From Nitrospirota bacterium (lineage in GTDB: Bacteria; Nitrospirota; UBA9217): a stretch of 64,000 nt of DNA. The notes beneath the pieces are model-generated. The model ran no database searches, was not told the DNA's origin, and was given only the letters and a program-made list of their open reading frames with translations. Made by a program: the position numbers and the translations under genes. The stretch is taken from positions 512,001 through 576,000 of the forward strand of contig CAWBNQ010000003.1 in NCBI GenBank assembly GCA_963790205.1, in the 5' to 3' direction. Shown here piece after piece: positions 7,273 through 55,935 of the stretch (the first letter of the stretch is position 1; each line of letters opens with the position of its first letter).

Positions 7273-7359
7273 AAGCTGAAAGCGATCAGTCCGCATAGGG
7301 CCGCAGATTTAAAAACCAATAATTTCTGTCTGGCTTGATCTGTGAAATTTGCGTAATCT

Positions 7360-7628
7360 TCTATGTTAAAAAGCAAGTCTTTCTTTTGGCATAAACGCAT
7401 CTCTTTTATTAAGGAGCGATTTATAGCGAACGCAATCTTCAAACCCAATCTTCTATGAGCAGACAGTCTTCGTTGATGAAGAAAACGCTGCATTGCCTTG
7501 ATTAATTATGAAGGCGTGGGTTCGTAGTCTGTGGAAGCACAGACGGCATCTTTCGATCCGCTGTAGATTACGCAAGACGATACCCACGGTGAAACACGGG
7601 TTTAAGATCGGCTATAAATATCGGTTTT
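7360..7628 (-). ncRNA. Putative bridge/seekRNA region, IS110 copy 1
   Basis: Reverse complement of 55557-55825; target-matching guide at 7565-7574. Confidence 0.8.
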
Positions 7629-8699
7629 TTATTGAACAACCGCCGTAGTGTATTCTTGTTGGTTCTTTAAAACGTACCGGACGCGGTTTAACAGCTTCCG
7701 GGCGATCCGAACGATAGCTTTGGTCTTTGTCATGTGTTTGCACAGCTCATTGAACGCCATCATTAGGGCAGGGTCTTTTCGCACCGCCGTCCAAGCGCTT
7801 TCGATCAAGACGAAGCGAAGCTGGGCGTTCCGCCTGCCGGTCATGCCGGTTTTAAGGTCCTTTTCCCCGCTGGAATCGGTATCGGGGATAAGGCCAACGT
7901 AGCTGCAGAGTTTGTCGAGCGTCTTGAAACGATTGATGTCATACAGCTCCGTCAAGAGCATCATCGCGGTCAAGGTACTGATTCCCGGCACGGTCTTAAG
8001 TATCCGGACATTGTTCCGATAGTCGTCCGAATTGGCCAGGGCGCGGATCGCCCGGTTCATCTCGGCAATGATATGCCGAAGATGCTTAAGCTCGTCTAAG
8101 TGTATCTTGAGTGATAGGTTGCCGCTGGCCCGCTCCATTTGTACGGACTCGATCCAATTGATGAAGCGTTTGGACCAGTAACCGTTGATGAAATCGTCCG
8201 GTATGTCGATACCGTAAAAGCTCAGGATCGACTTGATCTGGTTCTTGCAGCGAGTTTGTTTCCTTACCATGCTATTTCGAGTACGAAGGAGGCTGCGGTC
8301 CTCGACTTTTGGTCGCGTAGGGACATAGATCCCTTCGATGTCGCCGTTTCTGAGGCTCCGGGCTAGCTTGCGGCAGTCCACCCGGTCGGTCTTGCCTGCG
8401 CGCTCTTTGTCTTTTGTGGGCACATCCGCCGGATTGACCACGAGACATTGTATGCCTCGCTCCTGAAGCCGGTCATGTATCCAGAAACCGGAGTAACCGG
8501 CCTCATAGACCGACTTATAGGCTGCACCCGGAAAATTGCGTTTGAGATAGTTTACCAGCACCCCGACCTCCGGAGGTTGTGAAAAGGTCTTATGCTCGAA
8601 CTGATCGGTAAAAATACTGATGCTCCAACTTTTCTTATGAATGTCCATACCGACATAAATTTGTTGACCAGTGAAATCGAGTCTGCTAACGTTATTCAT
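7629..8699 (-). CDS. IS110 family transposase/recombinase
   Basis: DEDD RuvC-like motifs (GMDIHK, YEAG, KTDRVD) and Transposase_20 domain (TVPGIS, YVGLIP...SSGE, RNAQLR). Confidence 0.96.
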   Translation of the reverse strand: MNNVSRLDFTGQQIYVGMDIHKKSWSISIFTDQFEHKTFSQPPEVGVLVNYLKRNFPGAAYKSVYEAGYSGFWIHDRLQERGIQCLVVNPADVPTKDKERAGKTDRVDCRKLARSLRNGDIEGIYVPTRPKVEDRSLLRTRNSMVRKQTRCKNQIKSILSFYGIDIPDDFINGYWSKRFINWIESVQMERASGNLSLKIHLDELKHLRHIIAEMNRAIRALANSDDYRNNVRILKTVPGISTLTAMMLLTELYDINRFKTLDKLCSYVGLIPDTDSSGEKDLKTGMTGRRNAQLRFVLIESAWTAVRKDPALMMAFNELCKHMTKTKAIVRIARKLLNRVRYVLKNQQEYTTAVVQ

Positions 8700-8821
8700 G
8701 GCAAGTCTCCTTTTGGTGTATTTTGGTCCGGGATAGACCTAATATACCTTAAGTCAGACTTGCCTTTTTAATCATAAGGTCTGTGGATAAAAAAGACCTG
8801 AGGAGTTGCAGTCGTATGTTT

Positions 8822-9484
8822 TTACGATGGAGCACCTGATCTCAATTTTCTCGACAGCATGTCCGCGCACCTGAGCGGCTCCGGTATCCGGTATTTGCCA
8901 GTGCAGTTAAGCATGATGCGGATCGTGCTGTCGAGGTCGATCTTATGGCCCGGCGATACGAACAGGGGCCTGACACTGTCCTTTGTCCGCACTACCGCGC
9001 CGACGGTCCTGCTCTCATACGTGAGCTCGGACCAGCTTCCTTTTCGTCTGCCCGGTTCCTCGAATTCTCCGACAAGCCTTGTTTTTGCGCAACCGATCGC
9101 GGGGATGTTGAGCAGAATCCCGAGATGCGAAGCGATCCCGATCCCCCTCGGGTGCGCAATGCCCTGCCCGTCGACGAGAATGACATCGGGCGTTGTCGTC
9201 AGTTGCTTGACTGCCGCGATGATGGCAGGGCCTTCCCGGAATGAGAGAAAACCGGGAATGTAGGGGAATCTCAGTTTTTCAATGGCGGTCGCCTGTTCCA
9301 GAGGCGTGAGCTCGGGATAACGGTAGAGGCAGGCAGCTGCATACACCTGGTTTTCCGAGAACGCAGCGTCCACTCCTCCCACGTATCGCGGTTCACCTCT
9401 GAGAGGAACGATCTGCACCCGCTTTCTCAGAATTTCCCGCAGCTCTCGCGCCTGTTCTATCGAGATCGTTTTCGGCCATTTCAT
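8822..9484 (-). CDS. nfi: Endonuclease V
   Basis: 'GGVDAAF', 'FPYIPGFLSFREGP', 'LVDGQGIAHPRGIGIASHLG', 'IGCAK', 'YRIPEPLR'. Confidence 0.96.
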   Translation of the reverse strand: MKWPKTISIEQARELREILRKRVQIVPLRGEPRYVGGVDAAFSENQVYAAACLYRYPELTPLEQATAIEKLRFPYIPGFLSFREGPAIIAAVKQLTTTPDVILVDGQGIAHPRGIGIASHLGILLNIPAIGCAKTRLVGEFEEPGRRKGSWSELTYESRTVGAVVRTKDSVRPLFVSPGHKIDLDSTIRIMLNCTGKYRIPEPLRCADMLSRKLRSGAPS

Positions 9485-9542
9485 GCAAATACCACCCGTG
9501 CGCTTCAGATATAATTATACTATGTTTGATTCCAAAGACGCG

Positions 9543-9646
9543 AAACCAATCTGTCCGCAGATGTCGCAGATGGCCGCAGATTTTAAAACCAATAATTCCG
9601 GACGTTTTTTCTGTGAAATCTGCGTAATATGTGGATAAAAAAGACT
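9543..9646. repeat. Unoccupied copy of the ~110-bp palindromic repeat targeted by the IS110
   Basis: AAACCAATCTGTCCGCAGATGTCGCAGATGGCCGCAGATTTTAAAACC...CTGTGAAATCTGCGTAATATGTGGATAAAAAAGAC; homologous to the flanks of all three IS copies. Confidence 0.9.
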
Positions 9647-9685
9647 TGAGTCGTGTTCATCCGTGGCTAAGAAAGGGGTGATTCC

Positions 9686-10150
9686 ATGTTTCTCTATCTC
9701 GTACAGCACGGTGAGGCGAAGAGGGAAGAGGAAGACCCTGCACGGGGGCTTACGGACAAAGGATCCAAGGAGGTTGCCAGGACCGCGATCTATGCGCAGA
9801 AGCTCGGTCTCAAGGTGAGTGTCATTCATCACAGCGGAAAGACCCGCGCCCTGCGGACCGCGCAGATATTGGCCGATTACCTCAAGCCGGGGAAGGACTT
9901 GTCCCCGGCAGAGGCCCTCGCGCCCCTGGATGATCCCGCCGTATGGGCCGGACGCATCGTTGGAATGAATGAGGATTTAATGCTCGTCGGACATCTCCCC
10001 TATATGGCAAAGCTCGCCGGCCTCCTTCTCTGCGGGGACAAGGAGAAGATGCCCATCGACTTCAAGATGGGAGGGATCGCCTGTCTCAGGAGGTTCGATG
10101 ATGGCCGCTGGGCCGTGGAGTGGATGATCGTGCCGGAGATGGCTGGATAA
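9686..10150 (+). CDS. sixA: Phosphohistidine phosphatase SixA
   Basis: 'LYLVQHGEA', 'HSGKTRALRTA', 'LMLVGHLP'. Confidence 0.9.
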   Translation: MFLYLVQHGEAKREEEDPARGLTDKGSKEVARTAIYAQKLGLKVSVIHHSGKTRALRTAQILADYLKPGKDLSPAEALAPLDDPAVWAGRIVGMNEDLMLVGHLPYMAKLAGLLLCGDKEKMPIDFKMGGIACLRRFDDGRWAVEWMIVPEMAG

Positions 10151-15675: not shown

Positions 15676-15681
15676 TTTGTT

Positions 15682-15762
15682 TCATTCCCGCGAAAGCCGG
15701 AATCCAGTTACGGGTAAAAAGCCAAAGACGCTGGATTCCCGATGGGGTCTTTCGGGAATGGC
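15682..15762. repeat. REP-like palindrome (TCATTCCCGCGAAAGCCGGAATCCAG...CTGGATTCCC...GGGAATG)
   Basis: Nested inverted repeats; similar to 25480-25548. Confidence 0.7.
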
Positions 15763-15885
15763 GACTTATATTATAATTCGATGGCAACCAAGCAGGTCTT
15801 TTTTTATCCACAGATTACGCAGATTTCACAGATGAAACAAAGCCGGAATTACCGGTCTTAAAATCTGCGGCCGTCTGCGTAATCT

Positions 15886-16154
15886 TCTATGTTAAAAAGC
15901 AAGTCTTTCTTTTGGCATAAACGCATCTCTTTTATTAAGGAGCGATTTATAGCGAACGCAATCTTCAAACCCAATCTTCTATGAGCAGACAGTCTTCGTT
16001 GATGAAGAAAACGCTGCATTGCCTTGATTAATTATGAAGGCGTGGGTTCGTAGTCTGTGGAAGCACAGACGGCATCTTTCGATCCGCTGTAGATTACGCA
16101 AGACGATACCCACGGTGAAACACGGGTTTAAGATCGGCTATAAATATCGGTTTT
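15886..16154 (-). ncRNA. Putative bridge/seekRNA region, IS110 copy 2
   Basis: Matches the right non-coding end of copies 1 and 3. Confidence 0.8.
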
Positions 16155-17225
16155 TTATTGAACAACCGCCGTAGTGTATTCTTGTTGGTTCTTTAAAACG
16201 TACCGGACGCGGTTTAACAGCTTCCGGGCGATCCGAACGATAGCTTTGGTCTTTGTCATGTGTTTGCACAGCTCATTGAACGCCATCATTAGGGCAGGGT
16301 CTTTTCGCACCGCCGTCCAAGCGCTTTCGATCAAGACGAAGCGAAGCTGGGCGTTCCGCCTGCCGGTCATGCCGGTTTTAAGGTCCTTTTCCCCGCTGGA
16401 ATCGGTATCGGGGATAAGGCCAACGTAGCTGCAGAGTTTGTCGAGCGTCTTGAAACGATTGATGTCATACAGCTCCGTCAAGAGCATCATCGCGGTCAAG
16501 GTACTGATTCCCGGCACGGTCTTAAGTATCCGGACATTGTTCCGATAGTCGTCCGAATTGGCCAGGGCGCGGATCGCCCGGTTCATCTCGGCAATGATAT
16601 GCCGAAGATGCTTAAGCTCGTCTAAGTGTATCTTGAGTGATAGGTTGCCGCTGGCCCGCTCCATTTGTACGGACTCGATCCAATTGATGAAGCGTTTGGA
16701 CCAGTAACCGTTGATGAAATCGTCCGGTATGTCGATACCGTAAAAGCTCAGGATCGACTTGATCTGGTTCTTGCAGCGAGTTTGTTTCCTTACCATGCTA
16801 TTTCGAGTACGAAGGAGGCTGCGGTCCTCGACTTTTGGTCGCGTAGGGACATAGATCCCTTCGATGTCGCCGTTTCTGAGGCTCCGGGCTAGCTTGCGGC
16901 AGTCCACCCGGTCGGTCTTGCCTGCGCGCTCTTTGTCTTTTGTGGGCACATCCGCCGGATTGACCACGAGACATTGTATGCCTCGCTCCTGAAGCCGGTC
17001 ATGTATCCAGAAACCGGAGTAACCGGCCTCATAGACCGACTTATAGGCTGCACCCGGAAAATTGCGTTTGAGATAGTTTACCAGCACCCCGACCTCCGGA
17101 GGTTGTGAAAAGGTCTTATGCTCGAACTGATCGGTAAAAATACTGATGCTCCAACTTTTCTTATGAATGTCCATACCGACATAAATTTGTTGACCAGTGA
17201 AATCGAGTCTGCTAACGTTATTCAT
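16155..17225 (-). CDS. IS110 family transposase/recombinase
   Basis: 356 aa, identical to copies 1 and 3 in the ORF track. Confidence 0.96.
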   Translation of the reverse strand: MNNVSRLDFTGQQIYVGMDIHKKSWSISIFTDQFEHKTFSQPPEVGVLVNYLKRNFPGAAYKSVYEAGYSGFWIHDRLQERGIQCLVVNPADVPTKDKERAGKTDRVDCRKLARSLRNGDIEGIYVPTRPKVEDRSLLRTRNSMVRKQTRCKNQIKSILSFYGIDIPDDFINGYWSKRFINWIESVQMERASGNLSLKIHLDELKHLRHIIAEMNRAIRALANSDDYRNNVRILKTVPGISTLTAMMLLTELYDINRFKTLDKLCSYVGLIPDTDSSGEKDLKTGMTGRRNAQLRFVLIESAWTAVRKDPALMMAFNELCKHMTKTKAIVRIARKLLNRVRYVLKNQQEYTTAVVQ

Positions 17226-17352
17226 GGCAAGTCTCCTTTTGGTGTATTTTGGTCCGGGATAGACCTAATATACCTTAAGTCAGACTTGCCTTTTTAATCA
17301 TAAGGTCTGCGGATAGATTGGTTTATCTTGTCATCTGAAGGTCAGTCGAGGC

Positions 17353-18252
17353 TTAGTCAATTTCCTCGTCAGGCGGGCTCTCTTCGTCCTCATCAAAAAG
17401 TTCAGGCATCGTTCCTTCCTCTTCGAGTTCCCTCATTTCCTCTTCATTGATCTCGAAAACCTTCTCAGCCAGGCCCTGGTCCGGGTTCTTCCCCCGCTTC
17501 ACAAGCTCCCGGTGAACGAAGGGCTTTATCGTTATGGGCAACGAAGGGTCCGCATAGAGCTCCCTCACGTCAAGGAGTTTCATATTCTGAAGAAAAGGGA
17601 CGGACAGCGACAGGGGGGTGTGCGTGTTTCGTACGAGCGAGAAGCGTACCAGGGAGCGGGTGGACCAGTTCGTATGGCCGGCGATCATCATGATGGTCTC
17701 AACAGGGGTGTCCTCGCGGCTTATGATCTTGAAGAGATGGCCTTCCACCATGTTCGGATTATTGAGGCAGAGCCGCACTACTTCGGGGTCACGGTCCAGG
17801 AGCAATTTGAGCAGGACGTTGCCCGCGGCCTTCTTGGCAAGCGTTTTCTTGTTCCCCAGGGGCATGGTCGGGACCCGTTCGATGATAAGGGACTCGACCT
17901 TATGCCTGAAGACCAGGGGAATGAAACGGCTGCGTGTTATCTCCTCCAGGTCGAAGAGGCGGAGAAACCGCGCGATCGGAAGAGAGACGGACAGCGGCGC
18001 TTTTGGGTTCCTCGCGAGCGCGAGGCGGACGGGATAACTCTCGGACCAGCGCTTGTCCCTGGCGATGCTCTCGAGGATGTCGGCAGGGACGTTCTTTCTG
18101 TTCGCGACGATCAGGATGTCCTCTTCAATCAGGCGCCGGTTCCCGAGCAGCGCCCTGATGACCTTGGGGGACGGGTCCTGGACATAGTGGGCTATTTCCT
18201 CCGCGCTCGCCGCTGCCGCCAGCTCCATTCTTTTGTCCTCTGTGTCCGGCAC
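17353..18252 (-). CDS. Hypothetical helical-repeat (LRV-like) protein with acidic tail
   Basis: Repeated 'VRLALARNPKAP' / 'VRFSLVRNTHTP' motifs. Confidence 0.75.
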   Translation of the reverse strand: MPDTEDKRMELAAAASAEEIAHYVQDPSPKVIRALLGNRRLIEEDILIVANRKNVPADILESIARDKRWSESYPVRLALARNPKAPLSVSLPIARFLRLFDLEEITRSRFIPLVFRHKVESLIIERVPTMPLGNKKTLAKKAAGNVLLKLLLDRDPEVVRLCLNNPNMVEGHLFKIISREDTPVETIMMIAGHTNWSTRSLVRFSLVRNTHTPLSLSVPFLQNMKLLDVRELYADPSLPITIKPFVHRELVKRGKNPDQGLAEKVFEINEEEMRELEEEGTMPELFDEDEESPPDEEID

Positions 18253-26935: not shown

Positions 26936-29900
26936 TTATGGGGCAGTAAAGAGCGGCGCCTCGATAGTGGCGCTGTTGCCGTTCAGATCATTAACGCCGA
27001 TTTGCCACTGATACGTCACCCCGGTCGAAAGGGCCGACTGCGAGGCGCTCCCGTCCACATTGTACAAGACCGAGGTCGTCGTCAGGGTCCCATTCTGCGG
27101 ATAGTTCCACACAAAGCCCCCGTTGTTCTGGCCCACGAAAATATTATAGGAGTTGAAATTCGTGGGCAACGGGCTCGGCGCCGTCCAGGTGAACGTGGGC
27201 GTGTCGACGTTCGTGGCGTTCAAGTTTGTCGCAAAGTTGTCGAGCACGGCGGTCACTGTCGCGTTCAGGGTTTCTGATGTCCCGTCCGAGTAGGCGACTG
27301 CGAAGGCATAGGAATCACCCACCGTCGGCCTGACCGAGCCGAGGTTGATATAGAGATAGCCCTGCTGCCCGGCCTCCAGATCCAGGGGGACCGGGGTATT
27401 CGGCCCTGAGGTGAGCGTTGCCGCTACCGGCAGCTTCACATTGCCGGAAACCTGAATTTGCTGCAAGCTGTAAGATTCATTGCTGTTGTAGTCCTTGAAG
27501 TGGCTGGTGCTTACATTGGCGAATGCGTTTGCGCCCGAGAGCGTTTGGTTCACTCCCGATAAATTGCCGCTTACGGTCACTGAACTATTATTGCCGTTCG
27601 TATTGCCGATGTCCCCGAGGTCTATCGCGCCGTCCCCGTTCATATCGATGACGGCAATGGGCGTGTAGGTGCCGTTCGGCACGCCCGCGATGCTGTATGA
27701 CGCCGGGCTGGTTGACGGAAGAGTAACAGGCGTGAAGAATATGTGTTCTGTGCCGTTTGTCTTGCTGTCGAGGATCACGTACATTGTCTTTCCTGTGGTA
27801 AGCGTGGACGACGGGAACGAGATCGTGCCTGAAACAGTGTTCAGGCCCGTTGTCGCGTTTATGGTCGTCGAAGTCGGTGAAGACAATACGCTTTCCTGTC
27901 CATTCAGCGACGCAGTAACCGCAAAGTTATACGTTGAAGCGTTCGTAAGCCCGGACACGAATACATGACCGCTGTTATCGCTGGTTGCCGGGACCGTCAA
28001 TTTGGAGCTTGATTTGCTGACCGTGCCGGTTGCGTAGTAGATGTTGTAATGGTCGGAGAACTGATTGCCGTTGGTGTCCACAGCCGGTTTCCATTTGATA
28101 AGCGCGGTGTTGCTGCCGCGGCCTGTCACTTTTACGCTCTGGGGCGCGGGAAGCGGGGATGTCGGCGTGGGATCGGAAATCACGATGTCCGGGCTTATCA
28201 CGTCCGCATTCGTAACGCTGAAGCCGGCTGTACCGCCCAGGGGAGACGCTGCGTTTATCACCCCGGTCTCCGGGCTGCTCGTGTCCATCCAGGCCGCGAG
28301 CGAGTAATCACCCGGAGGAACGCCGCGGATGGTAAACGTCGGCGATGAAGCGAGGTCCGGGATGCTCGTACCCAGACCGGTTGTTCCGCCGCCGTTCATT
28401 TGCAGGACCACATAGACCCTTCCCGTGGAGCCGGACGAAGAGCTCACAATCCCCGAGACGGTGTAGAAGACGTTGGCGCTGAAATTCTCGTTTATGCCTC
28501 CGTTGTTCACGGTCAGCAATATGCTCGCGGGATAGAACGCGGATTCCGCTCCCGCAAGGCTCGGGGTGAGCGTGTAGTTTCCATTCGGGATATTGGAGAT
28601 GGTGTAATTCCCGCTTACGTCCGTCATTGCGGTCACGGTCGGCGACGTGTCGAGCGACAGGAGCACGCCCGGGAGCCAGGTGCTGCCGCCGAAGGTGTTG
28701 AGATACACCGTCCCGGAAATGTTGTAGCCGGTCCCGGTGGCGGCAATGAAGTTGACGCCCGTGATGTCGGCGCTGAGGAACTGCGCGCTGGGCGAAGAGA
28801 AAGTGTAGCCCGTCTCGGAGGCGGTTATGGTATAGGTCTGCCCGCTCAGCAGGTTCGGGATCGCGTAATTGCCGTTTGCGTCGGTCGTTGTGATGCCTCC
28901 GGCGCCGCCGGTCGCCGTTACGGTGACGCCCGGGAAGCCGATGCCGTTGAAGGTCACTTGTCCCGAGATGCCGTACGTCGGGAGAGGCGAGCCCGTGAAG
29001 TTGTTGCCAATAGAGTCCGCACCGGAAATAGTGACCGGTATGCTCGTGGGGCTGAATGTGTAGGTTGCAAGAGACGCTACGACCGAATACGTTCCGTCCG
29101 CGATATTGGAGAAACTATACTGACCGCCGTTGGTCGTCGTCGTGCTGGTTACAAGGTCGCCGCTTAAATTCACCGTGACCCCATCCGCGATTGCGCCGCT
29201 CACGGTGCCTGAGATGTGGTATGTCGGGATGACCGATGCAGTGAAATCAAGGGCCGCAGGGTCCGTGCTCGTTATCGTGACGGGCTGACTTGTTCCCGTG
29301 CTGAAGGTGTACCCGTACTTCGACGGAGTGACGGTGTACGATCCCGGAGAGAGGTTCGTGAAGCTGTAGTGGCCTCCGTTGGTCGTCGTGGTGCTGGTCA
29401 CAAGGTCTCCGCTCAAATTCATCGTGACCCCGTCGGCGATCGCGCCGCCCACCGTGCCGGAGAGGGTGAAGATCGAACTTCCCGGCGTATAGAACGGCGC
29501 CTCCAGGGTGGCGGTGTTGTTGTTCGCATCGGCCACGCTGACCATCCAGCCGTACGCTGTCCCGCCCGCAAGGGACGCAGGATTGGCTTTCCCGTCCGTA
29601 TTGTATGTGACCGTGGTCTGCGAGAACACGCCGTCTTGCGGATACTCCCAGACCGTGCCGCCCATATCCTGGAACACCGAGAGGGAATAGGCGGCATTTG
29701 CAGGCGGCGAAACCGGCGCCGTCCAACTGAAGGTCGGCGTGCCGTCGTTCGGCACGGGTGTGACCGTAAGCGTTTGAGCGAAGCTGTCGAGCACCGCGGT
29801 GACCGCCGAGGCAAGAGTTTCCGAAGATGCGTCGGAATAGGAGACCGAGAAACTATAGTTGTCTCCCGGAGAGGGCCTGTCCGTACCGAAGTCGATAAAG

Positions 29901-32900
29901 AGCATCGAGCCGTTGGCCGTGGTGTCCAGGTCCGTGGGGCCCAGGACATTGGGCCCCGTAAGGGACGCCTGCACCGGGAGTTTCTCATTTCCAATGACGC
30001 CGATATTCCGCAGGCTGTACGATTCGCTTCCCGTACTGTCCTTGCTGTGGTTGGTGCTTAACCGGGGGGATGCGTTCGCCCCCGAGAGCGTCTGGTCCAC
30101 TCCGGCTGTCAGGGAACCGCCGGAGACAGTGACGAAGGCGTTGTTGGAATTCGTATTGCTGATGTCCCCGATGTCGTTCGTGTTGTCGTTGTTCATGTCG
30201 ATTACGGCAAAGGGCGTGTATGAGCCGTCAGGAATGCCGGCGATGCTGTAGGTTGCAGAAGTGCTTAAAAGGTTGGCAATCGGCGCGAAGAATACGCCGT
30301 TCGTGTCGCTGTAGACGCCAACGATCATGTTTTTCCCGTCTGCCGCAGCCGGGTAATAAACAGTACCCGAGATGCCGTTCAATCCCGCGGTCGCGCCGAT
30401 GGTCGCCGTGGCTTCGGAGGACAACGAGCTTTCGGCCCCGCCCAGGACCGCTGTTATGGCGAAGTGATACACTTGCGTGTTCGTGAGCGCGCTCACGATC
30501 GCCATGGCGTCCCCGGCGCCGTTTGCTGTTACGGTCATATGGGAGCTCAACGTAGTGACAGGGTTCGTGTCGTAATAGACGTTGAAATGATCGGCAAGCA
30601 GCTTGCCGTTATTGTCCATGGGCGGCTTCCACATGATAAAGGCGGTCGCATTCCCCGGAAATGCCTTGATGTTCGCCGGCGCGGACGGTGTCGGCAAAGA
30701 CACCGGATCGGCCATGGTAATGGTCTGGCCGGTGATGTCCGCATTGCTGATATTGACGGACGATATGCTGCCCGTGGGAGACGATACGAGCTGCGCGCCG
30801 GTTTCAGGACTGCTCGTGTCCATCCAGGCGGCAAGCGAATAATTCCCCGGAGGAACGCCGCGTATCGTGAATGTCTGTGATGAAACGATACTGGGCCACG
30901 GGATGCTCGTTCCGAGGCCGGTGGACCAGCCGCCGTTATTGCCCACGCTGACATAGACCCTGCCCGTTTGAGTGCCGGAGGGATAGCTTACGATCCCGGA
31001 CAGGGCGAACGTAACGCGCGCGCCGAAGTTCTGGTTCGGCTGGTCCGCATTGCTCATTGTCACCGGCAGACTCGTGGGATAGAACTTTGCGTTCGTTCCC
31101 GCGAAGCTCGGAGTAAGCGTGTATGTGGCGTCCGGAATATTGGAGAGAGAGAAATTTCCATTGCCGTCCGTAACGACGGTTGTTGTCGGCGAAGTATCGA
31201 GCGTCAGGAGCACGCCCTGAAGCCCCAGGCCTCCGCTGAGGCCGAGGACATTCACGGTCCCGGAAAGGGTATGGCCCGATCCGGCAGCGGTGGAGAAGTT
31301 GACGCCGATAATATCGGAGCCACCGATTGCTTGAACGCTATTTGCCGGAGTGAACGAATAGTTCGTTTTCGAGGTCGTTATGGTGTAGGTATACCCGCTC
31401 AGGAGGCCCGCTATGGTGTAATTACCATTGGCATCGGTAGTCGTCGAGCTGCCGAACGTGCCGGCCGCTGTTACGGTTACGCCCGGGAATCCTATGCCGC
31501 CAAACGTCACCTGGCCCGAGATTCTCTGCGTGATAAGCGGCGTTTCCGTGAAGTTAACGACAAGGTCCGTGTCCGTGATCGTGACCGGCTGGCTAACCGA
31601 CGGGCTGAATGTGTACGTTGCAAGAGAGGCGATCACCGAGTATGTGCCGGGGGCCTGATCGGGGAAGCTGTACAAGCCGCCACCGCTTGTGGTGGTCGTG
31701 GCCAATGTTACTATTCCGGCGCTGTCCATCAAATTCACCGTGACCCCGTCGGGGACTGCGCCGCTGATCGTGCCCGAGATGTTGAAGATTGCGCCTCCGG
31801 AAGTATAGGTCGTCTGATACGTCGCGCTGTTCCCGGCCGTATCATTCACGGTGATCTGCCAGTTATAGGCCGTATCGGGCGAAATGGTGGAAGTTGCCCT
31901 GCTGTCCACGTTGAATTGGACCGAGGTCTGAGAGCCCGGCATGTCCACGCCGCTGTTCGGATAGTTCCACAACTGGCCGGCGTTGTTCTGGTTTACCTGG
32001 AGGGTATAGGTATAGGTTGGCGTGGGCGAAGAGGCAGGCGCCGACCAGTTGAACGTGGGCACGACAGCGCTCGGGACCGGATCGACGGTCATGTTCTGCG
32101 CGAAGCTGTCGAGCACGGCCGTCACCGGCGTGATCAGTGTCTCCGTGGTGTTGTCGGCATAGGTGACCGCAAAAGTGTAAGTGTCTCCCGCGGAGGGCCT
32201 GAAGGGACCGGTGCCGATATAAGAAGAGAATGTCCCGGGGTTGCCGTTTCCATCCCGTCCTATGTCCATCGGAACCGGGACATTCGGACCCGAGAGGAGG
32301 GTAAGCTTTACCGGAAGCTTCTTCTGTCTGGTGGCCCCTAGCAGGAGAGTGTACCTGTCCTTCGTCCCATCAGTAGAATGGTTTGTGCCGGCCGCGGTCA
32401 GGGAATTGGCAGCCAAAAGAGCGATGTCCTGCGTCGCGTCGGCATTGTTTATCGTGACCGGTATTTTCGCAGCGCCGTCGATCCCTATGCTCATGGCGCC
32501 GACATTCAGGTAATCGTTTTGGAGCAAGTCGACGAAAGCAAAGGCCTGATAATTGCCGTTCGGAATTCCCGTTATGGTATAGGTGTAGCTCTGGGAACTT
32601 GCCAGCGTTTCGAGCGGGGTGAAATAAATGCCGCTGTCGCCGTATACCCCGACATACAGCGGCTTGGAGTCCGGGACCGGCGCCGGCAGGGTGATCGTGC
32701 CGGATACGCTGAAGGTCGTGCTGTTGTCCGTTGCGGCGGCGCCTATGGTTACGGGACCGACAACAGCGGACGCCGGGCTTTTAAAAGCTCTATCCACAGC
32801 CGAGATCTGATAATAGAGCTGGGCGCCATCGCTAAGTCCTGTCTGGATAAAGACCTGCTGTCCGTAGGCGGGGACGGTGATGGTTGAACTAGTCACAAGA

Positions 32901-35554
32901 GTCGAGTCCGTCCCCCAAGAGATTAGGTACGAATCCGCCATTTCTTTCTGATCAACGTACCGATTGGTGTTAATCGAATAATCGCCTTGCCACGTGATCA
33001 GCGCGGACGATTCGCCCGGGAACACCGCGAGTCCCTGCGGAGTTGGCGGAGCACTTGGAGCGCCCGGGTCGTACAGCGGGACAGTCTGGTTGATCAGATT
33101 CCCCGAGGTAACATTAACTTGAAGAGCGTGTAGATCGGTGGTATTCGGTTCATCCACATTCTTGGTTCCCCATCCGAGATTGTCCATCCTTGCAGTAAGT
33201 CTATACGTTCCCGGAGGAACGCCGTGGATCATGAACGTTCCGGGCGCAGCGATGCTCGTTGAAAGCCTAGTGGATCCGTCCAAGCTCACAACGCCGACGT
33301 AGATCCGTCCCTTCTTGGTCCCTTTGTAGCTCACGCTGCCGGAGACGTTGTACGCTATCTGAGCGCCAAAGTCCTGGGAGGCGCCCCCTCCGTTCACCGT
33401 TGTCAATGCGTTCGGCGGATAGAAGGCGGTGCTCGCACCCGCAAGCGACGGCGTCAGGGTATACGTGCCGTTCGGCACGCCCGTAAACTGATAAAAACCG
33501 TTCGTATCGGTCTTGGTCGTTTTTATGGGAGAGGAGTTGAGCGTCACCGTCATGCTCGGCAGCGGGAAGGTGGACGTGCCGGCGGAAAGGATATGGCCGG
33601 AGATCGTGAACGGGGCCCCCGTGGCAGTGGCAGCAAAGTTGACGCCGGTCAGGTTTGCTCCAGCGATGGTCTTGAGCGGGACCGCTGAGAAGAAATATCC
33701 CGCTGCGCCCGCGGAAAGCGTGTAAGTCCCGTTCTTGAGTCCCTTGATCGTGTAATTGCCCAGGGCATCGGTGGCTACCGTTGCCGGTAATGTCAGGGAC
33801 GCGCCGCTTACCGTGATGACTGTCCCGGCCAGGCCGATCGTGTTGAAGGTCGCCTTGCCCGAGATGCTGAAAGTTGTTCCGCTGCTTGTTGCTGATGCAA
33901 AGTTCACTCCGGTGGTGTCGGCGTTGACGAAACCGGCGCTGCTCAGAGGACTAAACGTATACCCCGTCTTTGCGGGTGTCACGGTGTAAAAGCCGGTGGG
34001 CAGATTTGCAAAGGAGTAGTTGCCGCCGCCATCGGTCATGACCGTGCCGCCGGTCGTGCCGGTAAGGGTCATCAAAACGTTGGTGCCGGTCGCGCCGCTC
34101 ACCGTGCCCGACAGGGTGTGCGCGGTCTCCGTGTATCCTGTGGCCGCAAAATTGGCCGTTGTAAAATTCGCTGTCGTGAGCGCTACATCGGTGACTGCGG
34201 GCTTGAATGCAAAAAGGCTCTTGGCCGCTGAAACCGTGTAGTTTCCCGGCAGGAGGTTCTTAAAAGTATACTTGCCGTTGATGTCGGTGACGATTGTGCC
34301 GGTATCGGCCCCGCCCAGGCTCATGGTGACGCCGGAGAGGGACTTGGCGTTCAGGGTCGCGACGCCGGAGATGGAGAAGAACGGCAGGATCGTGAAATTG
34401 GCGTCGCTCATGTCGGTGGCTATGATCGTGCCGGAGATATTCTTAATGTCCACTTTGACCTTGCACGCGGTCTTGAGGGCCGTCTGCGCGGGCACGGTCC
34501 AGGAATAAGTATAGGCATTAACACTCTGGGTCGGGGCGCTGCTTAAGGGACCCGTTGTGATTACGGTCCAACTGCTTCCGCCGTTTGTCGTGAATGATAC
34601 CGTGGCATTTTTCGCCGCGCTGTTCGAACCGTACATGGTGTAACCGATGGTCGCGGGGTTGGCCTTGGGGTTTACGATCTCCCCGCCATTCGGCGAGGTG
34701 ACCTTGAGCGCCTGGATGGTGAAGGGCGAGGCTGATATTGCGGTGCCCACGATCGCACCCAGGCCGTTGGAGGCCACGACCTTGATCTTTGCAGTGGCAA
34801 CATTGCCGGCCGGCGGCACGGGCACGGTCCATGAATAGTTCATGGTGAAACCCAGACCCGGCAGATTGCCGCCGCCCGGGATCGGCAGCCATGTTGTGCC
34901 GTTGTTCAAGGAGTAGAACAGGTTGTAGTTTTCAGCCGCAGCGGGCGCGTTCCAGGTGATGCCTGCCGTTGAACCGGCCCGGAGAACGTCTCCCGCATGG
35001 GGCGCTGTGATAGCGAGCGCGGTGTTCGGGCTCACCACGACCTTGTCGAGCCAGGCCGCGTCGCTGCCTTTGGTGATCGTCGCGTTCTTGGCGTATTTCC
35101 ATACGAGCGTATGGGTCCCGGCCGGAAGTGTGAACATTTTCTGCTGCCAGTTCACCGTGCCGCTTATCGTGCTCTTGAGGGAGCTGTCGAGGGAAAACGT
35201 TAAAGTGTCATAAGCAGGTTCGGAGGAGACTTGCTGGTAGAAGGAGAGGGATGCCGGTCCGGTCACGGTCGTCATGATCGAAGAATACATGCTGTTGCCG
35301 ATCGGACCGCTTTGGGCCGCCATGGCATTCGAGCCGCCGGGGTACCACGTCGCGGTCTCTGCGGACCAGAGTCCGGAGGCGGTCGAACTGGACGAAGAGA
35401 ACAACAGCGGCGTAATGCCGTCGGTCTGCATGGGATTGTCCAGCGCGTCCGCGAGTGGGTCCGCAGTAGCGCAGGTGATGACAGGAGAAATAAGGCAGGT
35501 CATGATCAGAAATGAAAACAGTGCAGCAAGCTTCCAACTATTCATGCGCGACAT
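26936..35554 (-). CDS. Giant (2872 aa) secreted surface protein with carboxypeptidase-regulatory/CnaB-like and FN3 repeats
   Basis: Signal peptide; T/S/G-rich; repeated 'ISG.V.......GV...L.....TTD.NG.Y.F.....G.YT.TP' domains; three large related modules. Confidence 0.88.
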   Translation of the reverse strand: MSRMNSWKLAALFSFLIMTCLISPVITCATADPLADALDNPMQTDGITPLLFSSSSSTASGLWSAETATWYPGGSNAMAAQSGPIGNSMYSSIMTTVTGPASLSFYQQVSSEPAYDTLTFSLDSSLKSTISGTVNWQQKMFTLPAGTHTLVWKYAKNATITKGSDAAWLDKVVVSPNTALAITAPHAGDVLRAGSTAGITWNAPAAAENYNLFYSLNNGTTWLPIPGGGNLPGLGFTMNYSWTVPVPPAGNVATAKIKVVASNGLGAIVGTAISASPFTIQALKVTSPNGGEIVNPKANPATIGYTMYGSNSAAKNATVSFTTNGGSSWTVITTGPLSSAPTQSVNAYTYSWTVPAQTALKTACKVKVDIKNISGTIIATDMSDANFTILPFFSISGVATLNAKSLSGVTMSLGGADTGTIVTDINGKYTFKNLLPGNYTVSAAKSLFAFKPAVTDVALTTANFTTANFAATGYTETAHTLSGTVSGATGTNVLMTLTGTTGGTVMTDGGGNYSFANLPTGFYTVTPAKTGYTFSPLSSAGFVNADTTGVNFASATSSGTTFSISGKATFNTIGLAGTVITVSGASLTLPATVATDALGNYTIKGLKNGTYTLSAGAAGYFFSAVPLKTIAGANLTGVNFAATATGAPFTISGHILSAGTSTFPLPSMTVTLNSSPIKTTKTDTNGFYQFTGVPNGTYTLTPSLAGASTAFYPPNALTTVNGGGASQDFGAQIAYNVSGSVSYKGTKKGRIYVGVVSLDGSTRLSTSIAAPGTFMIHGVPPGTYRLTARMDNLGWGTKNVDEPNTTDLHALQVNVTSGNLINQTVPLYDPGAPSAPPTPQGLAVFPGESSALITWQGDYSINTNRYVDQKEMADSYLISWGTDSTLVTSSTITVPAYGQQVFIQTGLSDGAQLYYQISAVDRAFKSPASAVVGPVTIGAAATDNSTTFSVSGTITLPAPVPDSKPLYVGVYGDSGIYFTPLETLASSQSYTYTITGIPNGNYQAFAFVDLLQNDYLNVGAMSIGIDGAAKIPVTINNADATQDIALLAANSLTAAGTNHSTDGTKDRYTLLLGATRQKKLPVKLTLLSGPNVPVPMDIGRDGNGNPGTFSSYIGTGPFRPSAGDTYTFAVTYADNTTETLITPVTAVLDSFAQNMTVDPVPSAVVPTFNWSAPASSPTPTYTYTLQVNQNNAGQLWNYPNSGVDMPGSQTSVQFNVDSRATSTISPDTAYNWQITVNDTAGNSATYQTTYTSGGAIFNISGTISGAVPDGVTVNLMDSAGIVTLATTTTSGGGLYSFPDQAPGTYSVIASLATYTFSPSVSQPVTITDTDLVVNFTETPLITQRISGQVTFGGIGFPGVTVTAAGTFGSSTTTDANGNYTIAGLLSGYTYTITTSKTNYSFTPANSVQAIGGSDIIGVNFSTAAGSGHTLSGTVNVLGLSGGLGLQGVLLTLDTSPTTTVVTDGNGNFSLSNIPDATYTLTPSFAGTNAKFYPTSLPVTMSNADQPNQNFGARVTFALSGIVSYPSGTQTGRVYVSVGNNGGWSTGLGTSIPWPSIVSSQTFTIRGVPPGNYSLAAWMDTSSPETGAQLVSSPTGSISSVNISNADITGQTITMADPVSLPTPSAPANIKAFPGNATAFIMWKPPMDNNGKLLADHFNVYYDTNPVTTLSSHMTVTANGAGDAMAIVSALTNTQVYHFAITAVLGGAESSLSSEATATIGATAGLNGISGTVYYPAAADGKNMIVGVYSDTNGVFFAPIANLLSTSATYSIAGIPDGSYTPFAVIDMNNDNTNDIGDISNTNSNNAFVTVSGGSLTAGVDQTLSGANASPRLSTNHSKDSTGSESYSLRNIGVIGNEKLPVQASLTGPNVLGPTDLDTTANGSMLFIDFGTDRPSPGDNYSFSVSYSDASSETLASAVTAVLDSFAQTLTVTPVPNDGTPTFSWTAPVSPPANAAYSLSVFQDMGGTVWEYPQDGVFSQTTVTYNTDGKANPASLAGGTAYGWMVSVADANNNTATLEAPFYTPGSSIFTLSGTVGGAIADGVTMNLSGDLVTSTTTTNGGHYSFTNLSPGSYTVTPSKYGYTFSTGTSQPVTITSTDPAALDFTASVIPTYHISGTVSGAIADGVTVNLSGDLVTSTTTTNGGQYSFSNIADGTYSVVASLATYTFSPTSIPVTISGADSIGNNFTGSPLPTYGISGQVTFNGIGFPGVTVTATGGAGGITTTDANGNYAIPNLLSGQTYTITASETGYTFSSPSAQFLSADITGVNFIAATGTGYNISGTVYLNTFGGSTWLPGVLLSLDTSPTVTAMTDVSGNYTISNIPNGNYTLTPSLAGAESAFYPASILLTVNNGGINENFSANVFYTVSGIVSSSSGSTGRVYVVLQMNGGGTTGLGTSIPDLASSPTFTIRGVPPGDYSLAAWMDTSSPETGVINAASPLGGTAGFSVTNADVISPDIVISDPTPTSPLPAPQSVKVTGRGSNTALIKWKPAVDTNGNQFSDHYNIYYATGTVSKSSSKLTVPATSDNSGHVFVSGLTNASTYNFAVTASLNGQESVLSSPTSTTINATTGLNTVSGTISFPSSTLTTGKTMYVILDSKTNGTEHIFFTPVTLPSTSPASYSIAGVPNGTYTPIAVIDMNGDGAIDLGDIGNTNGNNSSVTVSGNLSGVNQTLSGANAFANVSTSHFKDYNSNESYSLQQIQVSGNVKLPVAATLTSGPNTPVPLDLEAGQQGYLYINLGSVRPTVGDSYAFAVAYSDGTSETLNATVTAVLDNFATNLNATNVDTPTFTWTAPSPLPTNFNSYNIFVGQNNGGFVWNYPQNGTLTTTSVLYNVDGSASQSALSTGVTYQWQIGVNDLNGNSATIEAPLFTAP

Positions 35555-47674: not shown

Positions 47675-47700
47675 AGCCGCCGGAAATATCTCCGGCGGCT
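47675..47700 (-). terminator. Riboswitch expression-platform terminator
   Basis: Minus strand AGCCGCCGGAG-ATAT-TTCCGGCGGCT followed by ATTTTT; overlaps the 3' end of the aptamer. Confidence 0.8.
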
Positions 47701-47776
47701 CGGCGGACATTGAATTCATGATTCGTTAGTCCCGTTGCTCTGCGTCCCAGGGTTTCCCCTGGTTTGCTCTGAGACA
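47688..47776 (-). promoter_or_regulatory. GEMM-I (c-di-GMP-I class) riboswitch, A20 variant
   Basis: Minus strand CTCAGAGCAAACCAGGGGAAACCCTGGGACGCAGAGCAACGGGACTAA...ATGTCCGCCGAGCCGCCGGAG: GCAAAC..GAAA..GGGACGC P2 and CTAA receptor in P3; in the 5' leader of the Ig-repeat gene. Confidence 0.88.
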
Positions 47777-47880
47777 GAGGAAGAATTAAAACGGCAGTAA
47801 CTGCCTAATTATTTGAAAAGATCGTGTGAGACTTTCGTATCGCGCTTGAAACAATATTACGGAGGTATAGGGGAAAAGTA

Positions 47881-53110: not shown

Positions 53111-53114
53111 TTGT

Positions 53115-53153: not shown

Positions 53154-53163
53154 AGGTGATTCG

Positions 53164-54363
53164 ATGAAAGCTCAAACTCGCAGAAGCATATTTGTCGTCA
53201 CCGTCGGAGTTCTCGTCGCGCTTGCACTCGTCTACGGGTTCATGCCAAAGCCCGTATCCGTGGATGCGATAGCGGCCCGGCGCGGGCCTTTCCGGGTCAC
53301 GGTGGAAGAAGAGGGAAGGACGCGGGTGAAGGACCGCTTCGTTGTCTCGTCGCCTGTTCCGGGGTATCTTCAGCGGATCGATCTCGAGGTGGGAGATGTT
53401 GTCAGCAAGGGTCGGCGGATTGCCGTGCTCGAACCGCTCCGCTCCACGGTCCTCGATCCCCGGAGTCGCGCAGAGGCGGAAGCTTCAGCAGCGTCGGCAA
53501 AGGCGGTGCTCGACGCGGCGAAAGAGAAAGCGCGCGCAGCCATGGCCGATGCTGAATATGCCCGCGAGCGAAACATCCGCATGAAGAAGCTGGCCGGGGG
53601 CGGCTTCATCTCGAGGGATGATCTCGAACAATCGGATTCGGAGGCCAAGAAGGCCGAGGCAACGCGGCTTTCCGCGGAAGCGGCGGTGACAGCGGCGGCG
53701 GCCGATCTTGAGCGGGCGCAAAGCGTGCTCCGCTACTCGGCGGCCGAGCATGAGCCGGGCGGCGGAAAGACCGTCATCGTGCATGCGCCGGTGAGCGGCA
53801 GGGTCTTGAAACTGCACCGCGAGAGCGAAGGCGTGGTGAATTCGGGAGACCCGCTCGTGGACATCGGCGATCCCCGCCTGCTGGAGGTCAAGGCCGAGGT
53901 GCTTTCAGCCGACGCGGTAAAGATCAGAAAAGGCACGCCGGTGGTCTTCGAGCGCTGGGGAGGGGACAAGCCGTTGTCAGGCAGGGTGGGGGTCGTGGAG
54001 CCCGCCGGGTTCACGAAGATATCGAGCCTGGGCGTGGAAGAACAGCGCGTCCTCGTGATCGTGGACTTTACCTCGCCTGCCGACGTCTGGGAAGGGCTCG
54101 GCGACGCATACCGGCTCGACACGAGCTTCATCATCTGGGAGGGGAAAGACGTGCTCCAGGCGCCGGCGAGCGCGCTTTTCCGAAAGGGTGAAGACTGGGC
54201 CCTCTTTACGATCGAGAACAAGCGTGCGCGCCTCCGGACGGTGGAGGTTGGCCATCGGAACGGCTTGAGCGCCGAGATCCTCTCCGGCCTCAAGGAGGGC
54301 GAGATGGTCGTCGCCCATCCCGATGATGAGGTCAAGGACGGGGCGCGGGTGAAGGTGCGGTGA
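53164..54363 (+). CDS. Efflux periplasmic adaptor (HlyD/MacA family)
   Basis: N-terminal TM helix, lipoyl half motifs (VSSPVPG, APVSGRV), coiled coil, 'EILSGLKEGE.VV'. Confidence 0.93.
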   Translation: MKAQTRRSIFVVTVGVLVALALVYGFMPKPVSVDAIAARRGPFRVTVEEEGRTRVKDRFVVSSPVPGYLQRIDLEVGDVVSKGRRIAVLEPLRSTVLDPRSRAEAEASAASAKAVLDAAKEKARAAMADAEYARERNIRMKKLAGGGFISRDDLEQSDSEAKKAEATRLSAEAAVTAAAADLERAQSVLRYSAAEHEPGGGKTVIVHAPVSGRVLKLHRESEGVVNSGDPLVDIGDPRLLEVKAEVLSADAVKIRKGTPVVFERWGGDKPLSGRVGVVEPAGFTKISSLGVEEQRVLVIVDFTSPADVWEGLGDAYRLDTSFIIWEGKDVLQAPASALFRKGEDWALFTIENKRARLRTVEVGHRNGLSAEILSGLKEGEMVVAHPDDEVKDGARVKVR

Positions 54364-54485
54364 ATATATCAGCAATGAAATATCGGATTTTTTTCTATCC
54401 ACAGACCTTATGATTAAAAAGGCAAGTCTGACTTAAGGTATATTAGGTCTATCCCGGACCAAAATACACCAAAAGGAGACTTGCC

Positions 54486-55556
54486 ATGAATAACGTTAGC
54501 AGACTCGATTTCACTGGTCAACAAATTTATGTCGGTATGGACATTCATAAGAAAAGTTGGAGCATCAGTATTTTTACCGATCAGTTCGAGCATAAGACCT
54601 TTTCACAACCTCCGGAGGTCGGGGTGCTGGTAAACTATCTCAAACGCAATTTTCCGGGTGCAGCCTATAAGTCGGTCTATGAGGCCGGTTACTCCGGTTT
54701 CTGGATACATGACCGGCTTCAGGAGCGAGGCATACAATGTCTCGTGGTCAATCCGGCGGATGTGCCCACAAAAGACAAAGAGCGCGCAGGCAAGACCGAC
54801 CGGGTGGACTGCCGCAAGCTAGCCCGGAGCCTCAGAAACGGCGACATCGAAGGGATCTATGTCCCTACGCGACCAAAAGTCGAGGACCGCAGCCTCCTTC
54901 GTACTCGAAATAGCATGGTAAGGAAACAAACTCGCTGCAAGAACCAGATCAAGTCGATCCTGAGCTTTTACGGTATCGACATACCGGACGATTTCATCAA
55001 CGGTTACTGGTCCAAACGCTTCATCAATTGGATCGAGTCCGTACAAATGGAGCGGGCCAGCGGCAACCTATCACTCAAGATACACTTAGACGAGCTTAAG
55101 CATCTTCGGCATATCATTGCCGAGATGAACCGGGCGATCCGCGCCCTGGCCAATTCGGACGACTATCGGAACAATGTCCGGATACTTAAGACCGTGCCGG
55201 GAATCAGTACCTTGACCGCGATGATGCTCTTGACGGAGCTGTATGACATCAATCGTTTCAAGACGCTCGACAAACTCTGCAGCTACGTTGGCCTTATCCC
55301 CGATACCGATTCCAGCGGGGAAAAGGACCTTAAAACCGGCATGACCGGCAGGCGGAACGCCCAGCTTCGCTTCGTCTTGATCGAAAGCGCTTGGACGGCG
55401 GTGCGAAAAGACCCTGCCCTAATGATGGCGTTCAATGAGCTGTGCAAACACATGACAAAGACCAAAGCTATCGTTCGGATCGCCCGGAAGCTGTTAAACC
55501 GCGTCCGGTACGTTTTAAAGAACCAACAAGAATACACTACGGCGGTTGTTCAATAA
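54486..55556 (+). CDS. IS110 family transposase/recombinase
   Basis: 356 aa, identical to copies 1 and 2; AAGGAG RBS. Confidence 0.96.
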   Translation: MNNVSRLDFTGQQIYVGMDIHKKSWSISIFTDQFEHKTFSQPPEVGVLVNYLKRNFPGAAYKSVYEAGYSGFWIHDRLQERGIQCLVVNPADVPTKDKERAGKTDRVDCRKLARSLRNGDIEGIYVPTRPKVEDRSLLRTRNSMVRKQTRCKNQIKSILSFYGIDIPDDFINGYWSKRFINWIESVQMERASGNLSLKIHLDELKHLRHIIAEMNRAIRALANSDDYRNNVRILKTVPGISTLTAMMLLTELYDINRFKTLDKLCSYVGLIPDTDSSGEKDLKTGMTGRRNAQLRFVLIESAWTAVRKDPALMMAFNELCKHMTKTKAIVRIARKLLNRVRYVLKNQQEYTTAVVQ

Positions 55557-55825
55557 AAAACCGATATTTATAGCCGATCTTAAACCCGTGTTTCACCGTG
55601 GGTATCGTCTTGCGTAATCTACAGCGGATCGAAAGATGCCGTCTGTGCTTCCACAGACTACGAACCCACGCCTTCATAATTAATCAAGGCAATGCAGCGT
55701 TTTCTTCATCAACGAAGACTGTCTGCTCATAGAAGATTGGGTTTGAAGATTGCGTTCGCTATAAATCGCTCCTTAATAAAAGAGATGCGTTTATGCCAAA
55801 AGAAAGACTTGCTTTTTAACATAGA
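55557..55825 (+). ncRNA. Putative bridge/seekRNA region, IS110 copy 3
   Basis: Stem 55597-55608/55660-55670 encloses an internal loop with target-matching TGCGTAATCT (55611-55620) and TCCACAGA (55650-55657) and a GAAA-capped hairpin; donor-matching CATAGAAGA at 55728-55736. Confidence 0.85.
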
Positions 55826-55935
55826 AGATTACTCAGATTGCACAGATTAATGAGGCCGGAATTTTTGGGTTTTAAATCTGCGTCCGTCTGCGAAATCTGC
55901 GGATAGATCGGCTTTTCGCGTTTTTGCCTCATCCT

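Follow-up and report, generated by a model that had tools for sequence, protein, structure and literature searches.

Members of the IS110 family of insertion sequences (IS) have an established record of targeting repetitive extragenic palindromes (REPs), attC sites, and transposon ends (PMC1525189, PMC11187229, and PMC11208160). IS621 of E. coli is described as combining a DEDD recombinase and a 2-bp CT core with a two-loop guide RNA that carries left and right target guides, and it inserts into a multicopy intergenic palindrome (PMC11208160). ISPa11, ISKpn4, and ISEc11, which belong to the IS1111 group and use a seekRNA, have a downstream noncoding guide region, sub-terminal inverted repeats, a fixed orientation, and repeat targets (PMC11187229). 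ISPpu10, ISPpu9, and other REP-targeting IS110 elements place all of their copies in an intergenic palindrome (PMC1525189; 10.64898/2026.03.19.712850), and homologs of ISPpu10 are reported to keep a related kind of target and its structure (10.64898/2026.03.19.712850). Here, we describe an IS110-family element with likenesses to each of these, present in three copies in a 64,000-nucleotide stretch of a Nitrospirota bacterium genome (G000:C3:512001-576000), which we refer to as the window. Very probably, a bridge RNA predicted in the right end of this element guides its insertion at the TGCGTAAT-CT-GTGGA arms of a GxxExxY-type hairpin likely spread by a MITE (miniature inverted-repeat transposable element).

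The comparison also brings out differences. The recombinase matches that of IS621 weakly (E 5e-6), and the left donor guide of the window IS is short. The RNA lies upstream of the gene in IS621 and downstream of it here, and the target is an E. coli REP there versus a 110-bp hairpin with a 9-base period here (PMC11208160). The IS1111-group elements have end extensions of 7 and 3 bp, compared with 9 and 6 bp here (PMC11187229), and unlike them, the clade of the window IS keeps eight left-guide versions on one repeat family. ISPpu10 and ISPpu9 use Pseudomonas REPs, in contrast to the GxxExxY-type hairpin and the one lone-arm insertion found here. GTAG- and CGTC-tagged REPs are dispersed intergenic palindromes like the target hairpin, which differs from them in being tagless, ~110 bp long, and built of three 7-base words per arm (PMC3733652). 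The IS110 mechanism and REP targeting are both known, and the window IS alone is an ordinary REP-targeting IS110. Reportedly, IS4321 and IS5075 are IS110-family elements that target the terminal repeats of Tn21; the window IS likewise lands in the sequence of another mobile element, although its landing site appears to be the cargo hairpin of a nonautonomous MITE and not a transposon end. What is apparently undescribed is a divergent branch with a downstream guide RNA, GxxExxY-type hairpin targets, and guides that differ throughout the clade while landing on sister variants of the hairpin. Natural guide redirection is described for one pair, ISEc11 and ISXne4 (PMC11187229).

Guide and target sites

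The IS is 1,421 bp long and has a 2-bp core on either side, outside this length; we read the core throughout as CT on the target strand, and it is AG on the other strand. Its three copies in the window, at 7360-8780 (-), 15886-17306 (-), and 54405-55825 (+), are identical, as are all six whole copies in the genome. There are also two halves, the left one at the start of C11 and the right one at C3:1073.7-1074.4 kb, which abut with a 3-base overlap and whose flanks together make one repeat. We count them as a seventh insertion, a real break and an assembly fault both being possible. The sequence past this break (G000:C3:1074430-1087021, 12.6 kb) reaches the contig end, and a chimeric join is possible there. 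All seven insertions have the CT/AG core at every junction, with no target duplication beyond it, and share one fixed orientation. The 2-bp extent of the core was read from relatives, and a third base common to both junctions is target-derived.

The right end of the element contains a predicted internal loop whose 5' side, TGCGTAATCT, and 3' side, TCCACAG, are the two halves of the insertion site; the site spelled by this target loop is TGCGTAAT-CT-GTGGA. We ran a guide parser on 104 loci, comprising 22 full-length genome relatives, one partial relative, the best 80 of 200 metagenome relatives, and one copy of our own element. It parsed 91 loci and failed on 13, and the rows were dereplicated afterwards. 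The left guide matches its own flank at 6.37 of 7 positions (n = 68), compared to 3.79 after permutation (maximum 4.24 in 2000 permutations), each score being the best of six registers under the same rule for real and permuted pairs. The right guide matches at 4.27 of 5 (n = 71) versus 1.84 (maximum 2.27). An alignment of 20 right ends has conserved stems, two-sided changes in 9 of 31 predicted pairs, and guide positions that coincide with the variable loops. At the level of sequence, the target loop thus matches both sides of the target, judged by the match itself and by its covariation with the flanks. The right donor guide equals the IS right end in 53/53 rows, in three variants, with only the last two letters free to vary. 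As a side observation, left junctions are always AG, but the right junctions of some relatives (L022, L232, L235, L204, and others) have GG or AA, and it is to these that the left guide corresponds; target and donor cores can therefore differ by one base.

All seven insertions lie at GTAAT-CT-G. The fraction of occupied sites by mismatches to the guide is 1/2 at none, 4/8 at one, 1/13 at two, and 0/47 at three, in counts that exclude the split copy and in which one two-mismatch site is the guide DNA itself. The genome has 10 sites at no more than one mismatch, compared to a mean of 0.2 (maximum 3) for 25 shuffled guides. Sites with an intact GTAAT are occupied in 7 of 14 cases and sites with a broken one in 0 of 9 (p 0.019, post hoc, with the split copy included and the guide's own DNA excluded). 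Partial target matches have been reported for IS621 (10.64898/2026.08.31.748434). By context, two-armed hairpins hold six of the seven insertions. The other one, C1:804368-805790, occupies a lone arm that has two right-side mismatches, and its right flank is free of any inverted word for 450 bp.

These counts bear on an earlier interpretation of the window made from its letters without database searches (the sequence-only reading). It had grouped the three occupied flanks and the empty site at 9543-9646 into one repeat family, and a profile built from nine copies in the genome recovers all four at E <= 2.4e-21, with a best E of 0.48 in the reversed genome. Its placement of copies 1 and 3 in the GTGGATA arm and of copy 2 in the opposite GCGGATA arm agrees with our own reading of the sequence. 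Its proposal that the guide is tuned to a multicopy repeat is supported, as the guide is readable in the right end, matches the repeat, and covaries with the flanks in relatives. The occupied landing sites are intergenic, as it had supposed: 14 of 16 tested stretches, including all occupied ones, have no overlap with an open reading frame (ORF) of at least 150 aa. It would have been refuted by other copies lying mostly outside the repeat family, which is not what we see: of the four insertions beyond the window, three are in full hairpins and one is in a lone arm with the same words. The occupancy of three copies in four holds in the window and not genome-wide, where 14 hairpin loci at E <= 2e-5 comprise six occupied, seven empty, and one with a 12-bp scar of the IS left end. 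The claim that each repeat offers two targets failed, since the core word is intact in both arms in only 3 of 14 loci. The empty repeat of the window is unoccupied because its core is mutated to AT in one arm and the other arm has three mismatches. The abundance that it had proposed amounts to ~14 loci in this genome, though the exact word reaches 78 copies in a same-family genome.

The scar is in a repeat beside an occupied copy (C1:291848-291948), and its 12 bases fit a deletion between two GATTA microhomologies; the spacer of this repeat also matches the right sub-terminal repeat over 14 bases. In a genome of 4.34 Mb, the 49 kb at 7290-55912 of the window account for four of the 14 hairpin loci and for three of the seven insertions, and local hopping may have taken place. 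Two IS-occupied copies (G000:C1:606030-607543 and the split C11 / C3:1073655 copy) have a hairpin interior inverted relative to the outer ends, compared to 0 of 25 distinct copies in relatives, and one ancestral flip is possible. Swapping of flanks between IS copies was considered as the cause and is ruled out, as both pairs of outer ends still comprise one of each kind.

From what is described for the family (PMC11208160, PMC11187229), the IS would form a circle whose joined ends create a promoter driving the transposase and the RNA. The target loop would then pair with both strands of a hairpin arm, and strand exchange at the 2-bp core would insert the IS in one fixed orientation. The choice of arm would be set by the sequence match beside the core, without a strict need for the hairpin fold.

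The hairpin repeat and its probable spread

In the ~110-bp target repeat, three 7-base words spaced ~9 bases apart make up each arm. Strictly defined two-armed hairpins with this 9-base period number 41 in the genome and 0 in the reversed genome, and 7 of the 41 begin with the C(A/G)CAGAT word used here. The palindrome of the sequence-only reading stands as far as the inverted 9-base-period arms are concerned, but it is imperfect: the empty copy folds as DNA with z = -1.85, and an equally good fold is reached by 9 of 200 shuffled sequences. The view that this is not a classical REP holds, as the repeat has no Rfam match and is a tagless ~110 bp with 9-base-period arms, in contrast to the 20- to 40-bp palindrome with a GTAG or CGTC tag described in PMC3733652. 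The earlier reading did not see the repeat as mobile cargo within a family of GxxExxY-flanking hairpins.

Arms with a 9-base period are found as flanks of GxxExxY genes. We tested this on PF13366 loci, of which 97 were fetched and 89 had usable flanks. The arm word is inverted on both sides of 72/89 GxxExxY genes, compared to 82/2,647 control ORFs. The 7-mers most enriched in GxxExxY flanks without any preset pattern are ACACAGA, ACGCAGA, ACACGAA, and ACACGGA, and one GxxExxY gene (L325) is bracketed by exactly the hairpin variant targeted by the window IS. Among 63 other same-family genomes, 24 contain the exact target word, which reaches 78 copies in G005; the control gave 0 hits. The target hairpin represents a single variant of the arms with a 9-base period found around the nuclease-like GxxExxY (PF13366) genes. 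The gene found between these words is GxxExxY, and no RAYT search was made. Our literature searches found no published account of GxxExxY-flanking repeats or of the repeat word.

Other genomes of the same family contain the hairpin as the central part of a 157- to 187-bp element (roughly 168 bp) with 12-bp inverted ends, 8-bp duplications, and no gene. The duplication is exact in 12 of 18 distinct copies and matches at 7 or more of 8 positions in 16 of 18, and G005 has 92 exact matches to the MITE ends versus 3 for a control pattern. Carriage as the cargo of a small MITE is the likely means by which the hairpin spread in these genomes. IS66-family elements are known for GTAA ends with an 8-bp duplication. 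Elements with PF03050 (IS66 family) in G000 and G005 have ends that are 9/12 identical to those of the MITE and 8-bp duplications, and the mover of the MITE is likely of the IS66 type. Two candidate partners were rejected: a 1.9-kb end pair in G004 turned out to be two separate MITEs, and 20 unpaired ends in G005 turned out to be MITE variants. The MITE end pattern has 0 matches in viral contigs, and literature searches found no published IS66-linked or ISBst12-linked MITE that matches this one.

In G005, G004, and G018 (L143, L146, L149, L347, L350, L356, L358, and L359), one MITE shell with 8-bp duplications surrounds five or more kinds of palindrome that resemble REPs, among them GTAG-type and TGAC-type palindromes and further 9-base hairpins. 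Positions 4627-4815 of the window have the same ends as the hairpin-carrying MITE around a different palindromic interior, with a relative at G000:C1:368130-368325.

Contigs of related strains bridge the copy-1 site (X5, 7277 to 8820 in one contig) and the copy-2 site (X2, 15678 to 17374 in one contig) with neither hairpin nor IS. Record 21 of X4 also bridges the copy-2 site, with 96 letters between. The hairpin is absent as well from seven endonuclease V loci of same-family relatives, four of which share at least one neighboring gene. The sequence-only reading had proposed a check of related genomes for empty orthologous sites; such contigs join without the IS, but the hairpin is missing too. 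From these joins and the hairpin-free orthologous gaps, it follows that the landing pad itself is a later arrival. A candidate empty site with an intact hairpin (X2, with contigs ending at 7359 and resuming at 8780, the IS uncovered) was not counted, as no contig joins across. A TGAC-type REP pair lies beside copy 2 at window positions 15683-15765, and in G014 (L074) a TGAC-type pair fills the gap that holds the empty hairpin in our genome.

Guide changes across a 15-member clade

We placed the window IS in a transposase tree of 92 distinct sequences, taken from 107 loci of which 101 had sufficient length and 9 were removed as duplicates; it falls in a 15-member clade with an SH-aLRT of 99 in a quick IQ-TREE search without bootstrap. 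By inspection, 12 of the 15 clade sites lie in 9-base hairpin words, with eight different left guides. A fixed word pattern spanning the core, written after both data sets had been seen, occurs in 9/14 of the clade sites that could be scored, compared to 0/43 sites outside the clade and 21/20,000 random AG cores; a stricter version gives 8/15 in the clade versus 0/53 outside. A test free of that pattern, which counts guides with at most two mismatches to GxxExxY flanks, yields 5/11 clade guides versus 5/55 others (p 0.008), with up to 9 flank matches for clade guides and 1 each for the others. Outside the clade, 17 relatives sit in TGAC-ended palindromes that resemble the CGTC class when judged by eye.

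Among recombinases 82 to 93% identical to that of the window IS, the scaffold hardly varies but the left guide comes in eight versions, every one of them matched to a repeat variant of its own. The left guide is common to the window IS, L208, and L211, the last of which is in the same hairpin, while L206, at 93% the nearest relative, has moved to a sister hairpin variant. When target words are taken as nodes of a network, single steps link 4 of 11 guides and steps of up to two link 8 of 11; as the nodes were chosen with the same pattern, the network is only suggestive. Clade members may persist on this repeat family because its many word variants let the variable guide positions change, so that a changed guide would still land on a sister variant. 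We see even prospects for the joint reading that this is a clade of bridge recombinases specialized on GxxExxY hairpins, which follows the word variants by stepwise guide change and forms the last tier of a chain. The three tiers would be the GxxExxY-linked hairpin, an IS66-type MITE that packages several REP-like hairpins, and a parasitic RNA-guided IS110.

Three other accounts compete with parts of this picture. Targeting might need the folded hairpin in addition to a guide match, a gate of sequence plus structure as reported for the stem-loop targets of ISPpu10 (10.64898/2026.03.19.712850). The predominance of two-armed hairpins among the insertions (6/7) fits such a gate, as do near-matching lone or decayed arms that are mostly empty, such as C1:306096 and C1:709272. 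We nevertheless regard it as unlikely, given the insertion in the lone arm of C1:804368-805790, the absence of an inverted arm within 150 bp in L223, the weak folding of the hairpin, and the nonrepeat sites used by most branches of the wider family. The idea that the repeat is a mere by-product of the IS, a mini-IS or an excision scar and not an independent landing pad, draws on the repeat with both the 12 bases of the left end and the 14-base match to the right sub-terminal repeat. It is highly improbable, because the target word extends to the 24 of 63 other same-family genomes, whereas the IS left-end pattern is in only 8 of 63 and not in G005, where the hairpin has its own MITE ends and 8-bp duplications. 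The same words also flank GxxExxY genes.

The link between clade and repeat could instead be plain inheritance, the guide changes being neutral drift among survivors that does not track the variants of the hosts. In keeping with this, hairpin targeting arose once on the tree, the right guide is conserved and by itself favors landing at C(A/G)CAG words, and near-relative pairs with 3 to 5 of 8 left-guide differences do not exceed the 4-fold-site rate (P 0.09-0.71, six pairs). However, other pairs have near-unchanged guides (0, 0, 0, and 1 of 13 differences) at 30 to 43% 4-fold divergence, which points to purifying selection. The changed left guides match their actual flanks at 6 to 7 of 7 positions, and their letters are those of the spacer and the second word in sister variants. 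We consider drift a doubtful though conceivable account. Replacement of guides as a block was also considered and is not supported, as left-guide divergence stays within the 4-fold-site rate; the pair L209/L210 has a low P, which reflects a register shift. The series is sufficiently explained by stepwise change with selection for remaining on the repeat, with no need for block replacement.

Several observations count against guided insertion into a MITE-spread hairpin or against a specialized clade. Seven intact sites are empty, among them the site in the second arm of copy 2, which fits the guide perfectly. The match of the left donor guide is limited to 4 to 5 bases, with covariation in one lineage only, and the bridge RNA, the circle, and the activity are all predicted from sequence. 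The hairpins of our own genome have one recognizable decayed MITE end and no duplication, so that their MITE origin is putative, and no transposase with the exact MITE ends was found in the 30 + 20 regions read. Within the clade, L205, L209, and L210 (3/15) are off this repeat family, and L055, which is outside the tree and 96% identical over its last 68 aa, has an unrelated, nonhairpin guide. The unbootstrapped tree and the after-the-fact word pattern belong here too, as does the pattern-free test, which is weaker than the word pattern and has nonindependent rows.

The clade is likely a natural series for studying how bridge RNA guides are re-aimed, and swaps among its natural parts allow tests of how guides evolve, how far mismatches are tolerated, and whether target structure is needed. 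If the reading is true, the eight natural guide versions are a direct record of bridge RNA re-aiming in nature, and they read out the accessible strand and position of the unexplained GxxExxY hairpins. The guide series would also be an independent marker that GxxExxY-flanking hairpins form one family, with MITE cargo as a route of spread, and recombinases this distant from IS621, ISCro4, and IS4321 widen the pool for genome-editing tools. Literature searches found no published account of this clade; ISfinder tables in the supplements of PMC11208160 and PMC11187229 could list a member.

A sister branch (L010-L018, L027, L229, L230, L233, and L243) has a much longer right end, which is not reached in most loci, and sits near apparent AT-rich promoter regions. 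A palindrome of ~110 bp is inserted in the right end of L240, L246, L247, L249, and L250.

Element anatomy and other features of the window

The noncoding ends of the IS measure 81 bp upstream and 269 bp downstream of the transposase gene. The sub-terminal inverted repeats, 16 bp long at the left end and 15 bp at the right, differ by a single 1-base gap and lie 9 and 6 bp inside the cores, and the joined ends have a predicted promoter, TTGCTT - 17 bp - TATGAT. In relatives, the spacing of the two hexamers is 17 in 66/71 loci and 18 in 5/71, a count of loci not dereplicated that were found with a pattern demanding a -35-like hexamer. The recombinase aligns to IS621 and ISCro4, and its motifs as read from the sequence are D19, E66, D105, D108, S277-G278, and GLIP-DSSG.

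The long downstream noncoding region and the sub-terminal inverted repeats (~11-13 bp and perfect or almost perfect in IS1111) are features of the IS1111 group. The end extensions of that group (7 or 6 left, 3 right) are not matched by the 9 and 6 bp, counted without the core, of the window IS. The transposase has 356 aa (330-350 aa in the IS1111 group) and is 20.6% identical to IS4321 and 26-28% identical to the ISEc45/ISSso6 type. Since the extensions break the 7/3 rule given in PMC11187229 and identity to IS4321 is only 20.6%, the sequence places the element in the IS110 family, and we do not file it in the IS1111 group. No close relative of the IS was found at E <= 1e-60 in 40 relatives (named neighbors). 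Two further IS110 types, 24-27% identical, are present in G000 in two copies each (C1:496675, C1:229726, C2:81259, and C5:25588), and one of these copies lies directly downstream of a TGAC-type REP pair.

Table 1. Positions of the IS copies, their hairpins, and predicted RNA loops in the window
Feature	Position	Strand	Details
Hairpin copy 1	7290-7359	+	Decayed far arm, spacer, and target arm to the CT core at 7358-7359
IS copy 1	7360-8780	-	1,421 bp between cores; transposase 7629-8699; identical to five other whole copies
Hairpin copy 1, remainder	8781-8809	+	Second core, rest of target arm, decayed MITE right end (MITE profile match to position 165/167)
Empty hairpin	9543-9654	+	Decayed MITE end; AT in place of the CT core at 9629-9630; three mismatches to the guide in the other arm
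Hairpin copy 2	15784-15885	-	Decayed MITE end; unoccupied perfect target 15807-15821 (-)
IS copy 2	15886-17306	-	Transposase 16155-17225; in the opposite arm of its hairpin
Hairpin copy 2, remainder	17307-17325	+	Second core and end of occupied arm
Hairpin copy 3, outer target arm	54385-54404	+	Ends in the AG core at 54403-54404
IS copy 3, left end	54405-54485	+	81 bp; contains a sub-terminal inverted repeat (54414-54429) and, for the predicted circle-junction promoter, the -10 hexamer
IS110 DEDD recombinase, 356 aa	54486-55556	+	PF01548 and PF02371; NF033542 at 210 bits (cutoff 140)
Predicted target-binding loop of bridge RNA	55598-55669	+	Left guide 55611-55620, right guide 55650-55656; conserved closing stems
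Predicted donor-binding loop	55680-55740	+	Right donor guide 55728-55735, equal to IS right end; left donor guide ~55684-55693
IS copy 3, right end	55805-55825	+	Sub-terminal inverted repeat 55805-55819, including the -35 hexamer
Hairpin copy 3, remainder	55826-55912	+	Second core and rest of repeat

Two features elsewhere in the window stand apart from the IS. A c-di-GMP-I riboswitch (RF01051, 64.5 bits) at 47691-47778 (-) lies upstream of a 652-aa ORF with 270-bp repeats, and a 2,872-aa ORF at 26936-35554 (-) has internal repeats of ~2.5 kb.

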